NCBI RefSeq assembly: GCF_003334305.1
Contig: NZ_QOWS01000013.1
Strand: one strand, 5' to 3'
DNA length: 64,000 bases
Source of the DNA: Escherichia coli
Lineage (GTDB): Bacteria; Pseudomonadota; Gammaproteobacteria; Enterobacterales; Enterobacteriaceae
Within the stretch, counting starts at the first letter, position 1, and the number at the start of each line of letters is the position of its first letter. Below, piece after piece: positions 38,890-39,622 of the stretch. The notes under the pieces are model-generated. The model was given only the letters and a program-made list of their open reading frames with translations. It was not told the origin of the DNA and ran no database searches. The position numbers were made by a program, and so were the translations under genes.

Positions 38890-39097
38890 AATTTTTCCTG
38901 AAGGTTGCGCTATCAAAACGCAAAAATGTTAACGAACTGGGATTTTAGTTAACCTTGCTGCGACAATTTTTGATTTAAGGCAGTTAAAGTTGTATTGGTG
39001 GTAGCAGCAATTTCATATGGAATTGTTGATTTATACCGCTATGTTATTTTTCTGATATGGCAAAATAGGATGATTGTTGAAACAGGGAGTAAAACTC

Positions 39098-39622
39098 GTG
39101 TTGGATAAACTGCGTTCCCGTATTGTGCATTTGGGGCCATCTCTGTTGAGTGTACCGGTAAAACTGACGCCATTTGCGCTAAAACGCCAGGTTCTTGAGC
39201 AGGTCTTAAGCTGGCAATTCCGTCAGGCGCTGGATGATGGTGAGCTGGAGTTTCTTGAAGGCCGCTGGTTAAGTATTCATGTGCGTGATATTGACCTGCA
39301 ATGGTTTACCTCGGTGGTGAATGGCAAACTGGTGGTCAGCCAGAACGCGCAAGCTGATGTGAGTTTTAGTGCCGACGCCAGCGATCTGCTGATGATTGCG
39401 GCGCGTAAACAAGATCCGGATACGCTCTTCTTCCAGCGTCGGCTGGTGATTGAAGGCGATACGGAGCTGGGGCTGTATGTGAAAAACCTGATGGACGCCA
39501 TTGAACTGGAGCAAATGCCGAAAGCCTTACGCATGATGCTGCTGCAACTGGCGGATTTTGTTGAGGCGGGAATGAAAACCGCGCCTGAAACCAAACAGAC
39601 ATCGGTAGGTGAACCATGCTAA
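39098..39622 (+). CDS. ubiT: SCP2-domain lipid-binding protein UbiT (YhbT)
   Basis: GTG at 39098 gives (M)LDKLRSRIVHLGPSLL, 174 aa; the ORF track starts at an upstream TTG at 39074. Confidence 0.85.
   Translation: MLDKLRSRIVHLGPSLLSVPVKLTPFALKRQVLEQVLSWQFRQALDDGELEFLEGRWLSIHVRDIDLQWFTSVVNGKLVVSQNAQADVSFSADASDLLMIAARKQDPDTLFFQRRLVIEGDTELGLYVKNLMDAIELEQMPKALRMMLLQLADFVEAGMKTAPETKQTSVGEPC

Follow-up and report, generated by a model that had tools for sequence, protein, structure and literature searches.

The locus around ubiT raises two connected questions: how are ubiU-ubiV and ubiT, which diverge across a short spacer, controlled, and does yhbS, whose start codon lies before the end of ubiT, take part in the same anaerobic pathway? 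Through this locus enterobacteria make ubiquinone without oxygen, in support of nitrate respiration, the synthesis of uracil and colonisation of the gut; the locus also connects a modulator of Hfq to the aerobic-anaerobic switch. Within the window, by which we mean the whole stretch of 64,000 nucleotides that was analyzed, we very probably see a compact control region for divergent transcription, with three promoters and two FNR sites, from which ubiT transcripts continue into yhbS (now hqbA). That FNR controls the genes, that ubiT and yhbS are co-transcribed and that yhbS lacks a role in ubiquinone synthesis has been known since the experiments of 2023; what is added here is the conservation across genera and the geometry of the sites in window coordinates, together with the constraint on the non-consensus halves of the FNR sites.

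Of 5426 complete E. coli genomes, 5425 contain the stretch 38700-40300 with an identity of 95-100%, so this is E. coli chromosome. It contains, or directly adjoins, the following genes and spacer:

37007-37885, minus strand: ubiV (yhbV), a U32-family [4Fe-4S] protein of the O2-independent ubiquinone hydroxylase; ubiV in RefSeq
37894-38889, minus strand: ubiU (yhbU), the first gene of the ubiUV operon; ubiU in RefSeq
38890-39097, 208 bp: the ubiU-ubiT spacer, 65.9% A+T compared with 48.6% for the whole window
39098-39622, plus strand: ubiT (yhbT), an SCP2-domain accessory factor; GTG start with GGGAG ahead of it at 39085-39089
39616-40119, plus strand: yhbS, the same gene as hqbA, a GNAT-fold protein that binds Hfq; ATG start; yhbS in RefSeq, WP_000908554.1
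40106-40417, minus strand: yhbQ, convergent with yhbS

RefSeq likewise places the pair ubiV-ubiU and the pair ubiT-yhbS on opposite strands, followed by the convergent yhbQ, and the divergent arrangement over a 208-bp AT-rich spacer that had been proposed for ubiU and ubiT is borne out to the base pair. All three Ubi proteins score above the curated NCBIfam equivalog cutoffs (UbiV: quinone_UbiV, 363 bits with a cutoff of 275; UbiU: quinone_UbiU, 560 bits with a cutoff of 440; UbiT: SCP2_dom_UbiT, 153.6 bits with a cutoff of 46.9), which makes them members of the O2-independent ubiquinone pathway. UbiT is in addition similar to solved SCP2 proteins. YhbS matches Pfam Acetyltransf_1 (E = 1.1e-11) and a near-identical solved structure, 4RS2 (E = 8.8e-111), and its residues 84-89, RGQGLA, fit the acetyl-CoA motif R/Q-x-x-G-x-G/A, as expected of a GNAT protein. 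The matches above the Rfam gathering threshold in the window all lie elsewhere (11318-29021), with none in the ubiU-ubiT/yhbS region. At the far end of the locus the convergent coding sequences of yhbS and yhbQ share their last 14 bp, and yhbQ-yhbS is among the excludon candidates detected by RNA-seq (PMC12288877).

The initial annotation had noticed TTGAT/ATCAA half-sites in the spacer, near 38995, 39028 and 38926, and had seen no full FNR palindrome. The half-sites exist, although not quite at those positions: a motif scan of the spacer placed TTGAT on the plus strand at 38970 and 39026 and ATCAA at 38912, so that the positions were off by 25, 2 and 14 nt, respectively. The missing palindrome is indeed missing, as no sequence in the spacer matches TTGATNNNNATCAA with fewer than three mismatches and the best sites have three each. 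These two best sites, F1 and F2, agree with TTGAT-N4-ATCAA at 7 of the 10 specified positions and have one perfect half each, a score that occurs in the window at background frequency. Matches to the FNR consensus with three mismatches number 297 in the 64 kb, where 245 are expected, or around one per 215 bp. The 198 exact TTGAT in the window correspond to 0.64 expected in the spacer, where three were seen (Poisson P ~0.03). By the sequence of the window alone the FNR sites are therefore barely above chance, some of these measures not distinguishing them from it at all; F1 and F2 are lifted above it because of their conservation and because of published experiments.

The experiments are those of Arias-Cartin et al. 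(mBio 2023), who identified F1 and F2 as the FNR sites of the ubiUVp/ubiTp1/ubiTp2 region of E. coli K-12 (PMC10470549). Mutation of F1 abolished the production of UbiV, while mutation of F2 abolished the anaerobic induction of UbiT and left its basal aerobic level intact; the two sites function independently, the mutation of one being without effect on the other (PMC10470549). The published F1 and F2 and all primers of that study match the window exactly and at the expected places. Earlier, yhbT/yhbU had been listed in the FNR ChIP-chip study of 2006 with the predicted site TTTAACTGCCTTAAATCAAAAATT (PMC1802558), which by our mapping is the reverse complement of 38965-38988 and spans F1. Arias-Cartin et al. 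found a single transcription start for ubiUV and two for ubiT, ubiTp1 and ubiTp2, of which FNR activates ubiTp2 along with ubiUVp, and not ubiTp1 (PMC10470549). F1 was reported to lie 36 nt upstream of the ubiUVp start, and F2 between the two ubiT starts, 19 nt after that of ubiTp1 and 33 nt before that of ubiTp2 (PMC10470549); these distances were converted to window coordinates. The starts derived in this way are ~38933/38934 for ubiUVp, ~39006/39007 for ubiTp1 and ~39072/39073 for ubiTp2. At class II FNR-activated promoters the site is centred near -41.5. The centre of F1 is 42.5-43.5 nt and that of F2 39.5-40.5 nt away from the derived start that it activates, and ubiUVp and ubiTp2 both have class II FNR geometry. 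On basis of the derived starts, the elements of the spacer can be assigned as listed below, the promoter hexamers being putative.

38942-38947, minus strand: likely ubiUVp -10, TAAAAT, in a block (38940-38954) that is 97% conserved
38970-38983, plus strand: FNR site F1, TTGATTTAAGGCAG, which activates ubiUVp and exactly equals the published F1
38993-38998, plus strand: putative ubiTp1 -10, TATTGG, with TTGATT at 38970-38975 as the likely -35; hexamer match 7/12
39026-39039, plus strand: FNR site F2, TTGATTTATACCGC, which activates ubiTp2 and exactly equals the published F2
39058-39066, plus strand: likely extended -10 of ubiTp2, TGgCAAAAT, in a block (39054-39066) that is 95% conserved

The published ubiTp1 fusion maps to an end at 39009. 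In the assignment of TTGATT-17-TATTGG (38970-38998) to ubiTp1, the TTGAT half of F1 would double as the -35 of this promoter.

For the comparison between genera, one genome per species was scanned with UbiT. In this way 80 loci were obtained, each encoding a UbiT with 81% identity or more to the query; their records bear Enterobacteriaceae genus names, with the exception of a few whose titles are odd. The order ubiV-ubiU, divergent ubiT-yhbS and convergent yhbQ is kept in 80 of the 80 species. Conservation of the spacer was expressed as the frequency of the majority base in an alignment of 78 distinct enterobacterial spacers. The halves of F1 reach 1.00 and 0.99 and those of F2 1.00 and 0.98 (97% for F2 as a whole), the two -10 blocks 0.97 and 0.95 and the two ribosome-binding regions 0.92 and 0.95, including the GTG and the Shine-Dalgarno sequence of ubiT. 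The stretches between these islands drop to 0.57-0.80. The conserved islands are thus exactly the functional elements: F1, F2, the -10s and the ribosome-binding sites. The non-consensus halves of the FNR sites, GGCAG and ACCGC, are conserved as strongly as the TTGAT halves. Outside this set, a site identical to F1 (TTGATTTAAGGCAG) was found upstream of ubiU in a Mixta-type locus, whose YhbS clusters with proteins of Mixta, Pantoea and Erwinia, and in an Aliivibrio-type locus, whose YhbS clusters with Aliivibrio and in which a PAS-GGDEF-EAL gene is located between ubiU and ubiT-yhbS.

The third half-site, ATCAA at 38912, we rejected as an FNR element, as it belongs to the least conserved part of the spacer and forms the loop of a predicted hairpin in the ubiUV leader:

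38905-38923, minus strand: leader stem-loop, mRNA UUGCGUU-UUGAU-AGCGCAA, with ATCAA 38912-38916 as the loop

A promoter-like TTGATA-17-AATTAT that uses the same site was also discarded, considering that it overlaps the ubiU start codon and that the scan returned no more such matches than in shuffled sequences. The hairpin itself has a predicted energy of -7.3 kcal/mol (z = -4.0), and 57 of 62 distinct enterobacterial leaders have a hairpin of -5 kcal/mol or lower in this position, with differing stem sequences. In the alignment 73% was paired as compared to 69% in shuffles, and the covariation was equalled in 6 of 500 shuffles. As the register of the stem varies from genus to genus, the covariation support is no more than moderate, and we gave up the idea of one consensus helix for the leader hairpin.

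Another element of the spacer appears to have decayed in Escherichia:

38994-39008, either strand: degraded inverted repeat ATTGGTGGTAGCAGC, 15 bases that begin 24 nt after the start of F1

In nearly all other genera the same position is occupied by ATTGRY-N3-RYCAAT, which is of the PdhR-box type. Compared with ATTGGTNNNACCAAT at the fixed offset of 24 nt, 13 species have no mismatch, 24 have one and 25 have two. The 13 perfect matches include Citrobacter and Salmonella, where the site reads ATTGGTAACACCAAT. All five Escherichia spacers have three mismatches, a destroyed right half and a spacing between F1 and F2 that is 9-11 nt shorter. PdhR, a GntR regulator of the FadR subfamily, recognizes the box (A)ATTGGTnnnACCAAT(T), and the core GGTnnnACC is required for tight binding (PMC7660256). 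With its three mismatches and lost right half, ATTGGTGGTAGCAGC does not qualify as a PdhR operator in the window. The yhb genes are not mentioned in the E. coli PdhR gSELEX paper (PMC7660256), and we found no report of ubiT/yhbT as a PdhR target in the literature searched. The repeat overlaps the putative -10 to +1 segment of ubiTp1. In one genome, that of E. coli strain S56, an IS1 element with a 9-bp target duplication, GCAATTTCA, is inserted between F1 and F2.

At the other end of ubiT, the overlap that had been reported between the yhbS start and the ubiT stop is found at precisely the position given, and is preceded by a ribosome-binding sequence within the coding region of ubiT:

39607-39612, plus strand: yhbS Shine-Dalgarno sequence AGGTGA, within the last ubiT codons GTA GGT GAA and ending 4 nt before ATGCTAA
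39616-39622, plus strand: ATGCTAA, the yhbS start and the ubiT stop, a 7-nt overlap

All 80 species have ATGYTRA in this position, and 79 of the 80 also have GTAGGTGA, the Shine-Dalgarno sequence of yhbS. The Shine-Dalgarno stretch within ubiT reads GTAGGTGAA, for which GTTGGCGAA is an example of a synonymous variant. In ubiT codons 170-174 the entropy at third codon positions falls to 0.25 bits, compared with a gene mean of 1.03 and with 0.22 at the start of the gene. Within the sampled Enterobacteriaceae the Shine-Dalgarno sequence and the start codon of yhbS are thus under strong purifying selection inside ubiT. Overlapping gene pairs that are translationally coupled (ATGA- or TAATG-type junctions) are well known in bacterial operons, and the overlap with an embedded, in-gene Shine-Dalgarno sequence gives ubiT-yhbS the sequence features of such a pair. 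The overlap also extends beyond the family: it measures 7 nt in the Erwiniaceae-type locus, 11 nt in the Aliivibrio-type locus and 17 nt in a third locus, whose YhbS is 48% identical. YhbS homologues of 46% identity or less are not encoded next to an SCP2 gene, and in one distant locus the order is yhbW-yhbS-yhbQ, and ubiT, ubiU and ubiV are absent altogether.

Whether translation of yhbS depends on that of ubiT is a separate matter. In E. coli the Shine-Dalgarno sequence of yhbS can be drawn into a hairpin of -12 kcal/mol, but a 110-nt fold across the junction is unexceptional relative to shuffles (z = -1.4) and the hairpin is broken in most genera, where its pairing partner CCC is changed to GGG/GGA; we therefore rejected it as a device that hides the site. 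Terminator-like matches in ubiT (39539-39554 on the plus strand, 39601-39582 on the minus strand) are no more frequent than in shuffles. With respect to the proteins, HqbA is abundant in air, a condition in which Flag-UbiT is barely detectable (PMC10710024), and simple one-to-one coupling is therefore not the whole story. Given the lack of a conserved structure that hides the Shine-Dalgarno sequence and the divergence of the aerobic protein levels, obligate translational coupling of yhbS to ubiT seems unlikely.

The protein at issue has meanwhile been characterized. YhbS was renamed HqbA, an Hfq-binding GNAT protein, in PNAS in 2023 (PMC10710024). It binds the distal face of Hfq in a 1:1 ratio and competes with weakly binding RNAs, for which its acetyltransferase activity is not needed (PMC10710024). 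The residues that were mutated in that study (PMC10710024), the Hfq contacts D98 and E102 and the catalytic Y117, are all present in the translation of yhbS from the window. Co-expression with ubiT, as had been suspected from the overlap, is well supported: ubiT-yhbS was found to be one transcription unit by RT-PCR, a YhbS-SPA fusion was made with and without oxygen and slightly more without it, and this rise was lost in an fnr deletion (PMC10470549). Similarly, FNR was reported to induce HqbA along with UbiT (PMC10710024).

The part of the earlier proposal that tied yhbS to anaerobic ubiquinone synthesis did not survive these experiments. In a yhbS deletion anaerobic UQ8 levels and nitrate respiration were normal, combining it with a menA deletion produced no synthetic effect and an oxygen shift revealed no defect, and Arias-Cartin et al. 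concluded that UQ8 synthesis does not involve YhbS (PMC10470549). In the original screen, in which single knockouts of the deleted interval were compared, only those of yhbT and yhbU were deficient (PMC6747719). Two outcomes had been named that would speak against the proposed link. One of them, the absence of a ubiquinone-related phenotype, has been obtained (PMC10470549); of the other, an independent regulation of yhbS, there are only signs, in the form of FNR-independent aerobic HqbA and of a possible transcription start within ubiT (PMC10710024). The link had also been called functionally unexplained. This no longer holds for the protein, as the function of HqbA has been described (PMC10710024), but it does hold for the reason why its gene rides on the ubiT transcript.

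Three other explanations of the locus can be weighed against an FNR-controlled region from which transcription proceeds into yhbS. Considering the background density of three-mismatch sites in the window, and the occurrence of four TTGAT within ~210 bp of yhbS coding DNA, the half-sites in the spacer could be products of chance in A+T-rich DNA and without regulatory meaning. This description fits the ATCAA at 38912, in its variable stretch, and nothing else: F1 and F2 are invariant across genera and functional by mutagenesis (PMC10470549), and F1 also by ChIP (PMC1802558), so that for these two sites the idea is already refuted and, for the locus, next to inconceivable. A hidden role of YhbS in the O2-independent ubiquinone pathway, for example the acetylation of a pathway protein or intermediate, would agree with the age of the overlapping ubiT-yhbS arrangement, which Erwiniaceae and Aliivibrio share with all of the 80 Enterobacteriaceae sampled, and with the anaerobic increase in yhbS expression that is due to FNR (PMC10470549, PMC10710024). 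The normal phenotypes of the deletion with regard to UQ8, nitrate respiration, the menA combination and the oxygen shift (PMC10470549) and the restriction of the deficiency to yhbT and yhbU in the screen (PMC6747719) argue directly against it, and so does the persistence of yhbS where ubiTUV was lost. Moreover, among the best 150 cluster representatives there is no fusion of UbiT and YhbS; a 'Rosetta-stone' connection was sought there and rejected, as the long representatives that contain YhbS have unrelated N-termini, none of which matches UbiT. For E. coli under the conditions tested a ubiquinone role is essentially refuted, and we consider a hidden one highly improbable.

The remaining explanation, that yhbS is expressed mainly from a promoter of its own within ubiT, with the overlap a matter of gene packing and the anaerobic co-regulation a minor one, deserves more weight, even though we judge it fairly unlikely. 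It would account for the significant amounts of HqbA in air while UbiT is barely seen (PMC10710024), and a possible transcription start within ubiT, originating from a dRNA-seq study, is noted in PMC10710024. Also in its favour are the distant locus in which yhbS lies between yhbW and yhbQ in the absence of ubiT, ubiU and ubiV, and the YhbS homologues of at most 46% identity that have no SCP2 gene beside them. On the other hand, the joint RT-PCR transcript and the disappearance of the anaerobic YhbS rise without fnr (PMC10470549) connect yhbS to the upstream promoters, and an internal promoter is unnecessary for aerobic HqbA because ubiTp1 is itself active in air (PMC10470549). Unequal protein levels could also result from the start signals, yhbS having an ATG and a strong Shine-Dalgarno sequence and ubiT a GTG. 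The best sigma-70-like match within ubiT is 8/12 and located ~380 nt upstream of the yhbS start; the consensus scan found none of 9/12 or better, a threshold that a weak or E. coli-specific promoter could escape. Nor does ubiT contain a patch of synonymous-site conservation apart from its own start and the yhbS Shine-Dalgarno sequence. Taken together, aerobic ubiTp1 activity and the ATG and strong Shine-Dalgarno sequence of yhbS are probably enough to explain the HqbA made in air, with no need of an internal promoter.

For the FNR-controlled divergent region, the following scheme can be proposed, in which FNR dependence, co-transcription and the missing ubiquinone role are taken from the literature, the positions, the conservation and the overlap were computed here, and we infer the promoter hexamers and the way in which translation starts. 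FNR, active without oxygen, would bind two separate non-palindromic sites. From F1, centred ~42 nt before the ubiUV start, it would activate leftward transcription of ubiUV, and from F2, centred ~40 nt before the proximal start of ubiT, rightward transcription from ubiTp2; the FNR dependence of both is published (PMC10470549). The weaker, FNR-independent ubiTp1, with its start near 39006, would keep ubiT expressed at a basal level in air. Every rightward transcript would run through ubiT into yhbS/hqbA, where ribosomes may arrive either by re-initiation after ubiT or by direct entry at the Shine-Dalgarno sequence of yhbS itself. HqbA would thus go up anaerobically together with UbiT and yet also be made in air, with Hfq and not ubiquinone as its published target.

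The comparative data on the linkage of hqbA indicate that it is old, the ubiT-hqbA operon with its stop-start overlap going back beyond the split between Enterobacterales and Vibrionaceae, that the embedded ribosome-binding site is selected and that yhbS can exist without ubiT. They invite the speculation, which we regard as quite unlikely at present, that HqbA has an anaerobic task for which it is dosed together with UbiT. If true, this task might be the resetting of the RNA repertoire of Hfq, or the acetylation of a target, at the respiratory switch. The link between ubiT and hqbA would then be functional instead of an accident of packing, even though ubiquinone levels are independent of HqbA.

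Compared with known systems, the locus is in part identical and in part a variation. Its control region is the same as the ubiUVp/ubiTp1/ubiTp2 region of E. coli K-12, from which it shows no sequence difference (PMC10470549), and its YhbS is the same protein as the HqbA described in PMC10710024, encoded by the second gene of the FNR-induced ubiT operon, again with no difference. Like other class II FNR promoters, the two activated promoters each have one site over the -35 region, with centres at around -40 and -42/-43. Unlike these, F1 and F2 keep one consensus half and a second half that is non-consensus and nevertheless conserved, and two such promoters stand back to back, 56 bp apart, and act independently (PMC10470549). 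The ubiT-yhbS junction resembles that of translationally coupled pairs in that the second gene starts before the first one ends and has its Shine-Dalgarno sequence inside it, both features being conserved; it differs from them in that no conserved structure hides the Shine-Dalgarno sequence and the protein levels diverge in air (PMC10710024). Finally, the three genes ubiT, ubiU and ubiV are adjacent in 106 of the 210 proteobacterial genomes analyzed by Pelosi et al. in 2019 (PMC6747719). The locus described here shares the clustering of these three genes, but differs from those loci in the divergent orientation of ubiT relative to ubiUV and in the yhbS that follows ubiT.

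The spacer between F1 and F2, the two published Fnr sites, contains a further element that is conserved among the enterobacterial comparison loci:

38994-39008 (and the equivalent position in L006-L081): inverted repeat ATTGRY-N3-RYCAAT, starting 24 nt past the F1 start

The repeat, located between both Fnr sites, covers the inferred -10/+1 region of ubiTp1, the Fnr-independent promoter of ubiT. When compared to the PdhR-box consensus (ATTGGTnnnACCAAT), it showed 0 mismatches in 13 species (Citrobacter, Salmonella), 1 mismatch in 24 species and 2 in another 25. The right half of the repeat is gone in 5 out of 5 Escherichia spacers (ATTGGTGGTAGCAGC), and the distance between F1 and F2 is 56 nt in the Escherichia spacers versus 59-67 nt (mostly 65-67) elsewhere. 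The repeat may represent an operator of a regulator from the FadR subfamily of the GntR family, an operator that Escherichia would have lost. No account of ubiT/yhbT as a target of PdhR was found in the literature searched, and the yhb genes are unmentioned in the E. coli PdhR gSELEX paper.

In E. coli strain S56 the same spacer is interrupted by an insertion element:

L094 (NZ_CP010242.1), equivalent to window 39007-39015: IS1, between F1/ubiTp1 and F2/ubiTp2

The element is bordered by a 9-bp target duplication (GCAATTTCA). The insertion displaces ubiTp1 and the ubiUV promoter around 0.8 kb from ubiT and leaves F2 and ubiTp2, the F2-activated promoter, intact. It was present in at least one record of the 5425 matching genomes, among the records listed.

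On the ubiUV side, a pair of hexamers and a leader hairpin were identified:

38927-38932 and 38948-38953: GTTAAC, twice, 21 bp apart, either side of the inferred -10 and start of the ubiUV promoter
38905-38923, minus strand: stem-loop UUGCGUU-UUGAU-AGCGCAA in the ubiUV 5' leader (-7.3 kcal/mol, z = -4.0)

The blocks that hold both hexamers show 91-97% conservation among genera, which may reflect the core promoter alone or an additional binding site. The stem-loop is placed after the inferred ubiUV start and before the Shine-Dalgarno sequence of ubiU. Of 62 distinct leaders from enterobacteria, 57 have a hairpin with an energy of -5 kcal/mol or lower at the equivalent position, and its stem sequence differs from genus to genus; the Pseudocitrobacter leader is without it. 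Covariation, measured as a fixed-helix pair count, is moderate only.

Elsewhere in the window, Rfam matches at the gathering threshold were confined to 11318-29021, and all of these are the usual content of that part of the E. coli chromosome:

11318-11439: greA leader
18092-18175 and 21959-22032: two tRNAs
22124-22224: rimP leader
26923-26993: naRNA4
28506-28620: S15 leader
28850-29021, minus strand: SraG

In the Aliivibrio-type locus L086 (1248-3275) and in a second locus, L091 (246-2318), whose YhbS is 48% identical, a PAS-GGDEF-EAL gene (cyclic-di-GMP turnover) separates ubiU from ubiT-yhbS. The F1-type site is kept at ubiU; it is identical in L086, whereas the L091 copy has one base changed. 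A separate site with a TTGAT belongs to ubiT and lies around 74 nt upstream of the ubiT start codon. In L091 yhbS is followed by holD-rimI-prfC, and in L088, another contig of the Aliivibrio-type cluster, by a holD-type gene. In the enterobacterial-type locus L093 (Logan SRR29828246 contig, 1708-3824), only a spacer of 276 bp separates yhbW from yhbS and yhbQ, and remnants of ubiT, ubiU or ubiV are absent; yhbS is therefore able to persist without the ubiquinone genes.

The yhbS gene also overlaps its neighbor:

40106-40119: convergent 14-bp overlap of the coding ends of yhbS (plus) and yhbQ (minus)

This geometry is seen repeatedly among the 80 loci, where the yhbQ matches end within or adjoining the yhbS 3' end, and the yhbS-yhbQ pair is among the excludon candidates detected by RNA-seq (PMC12288877).
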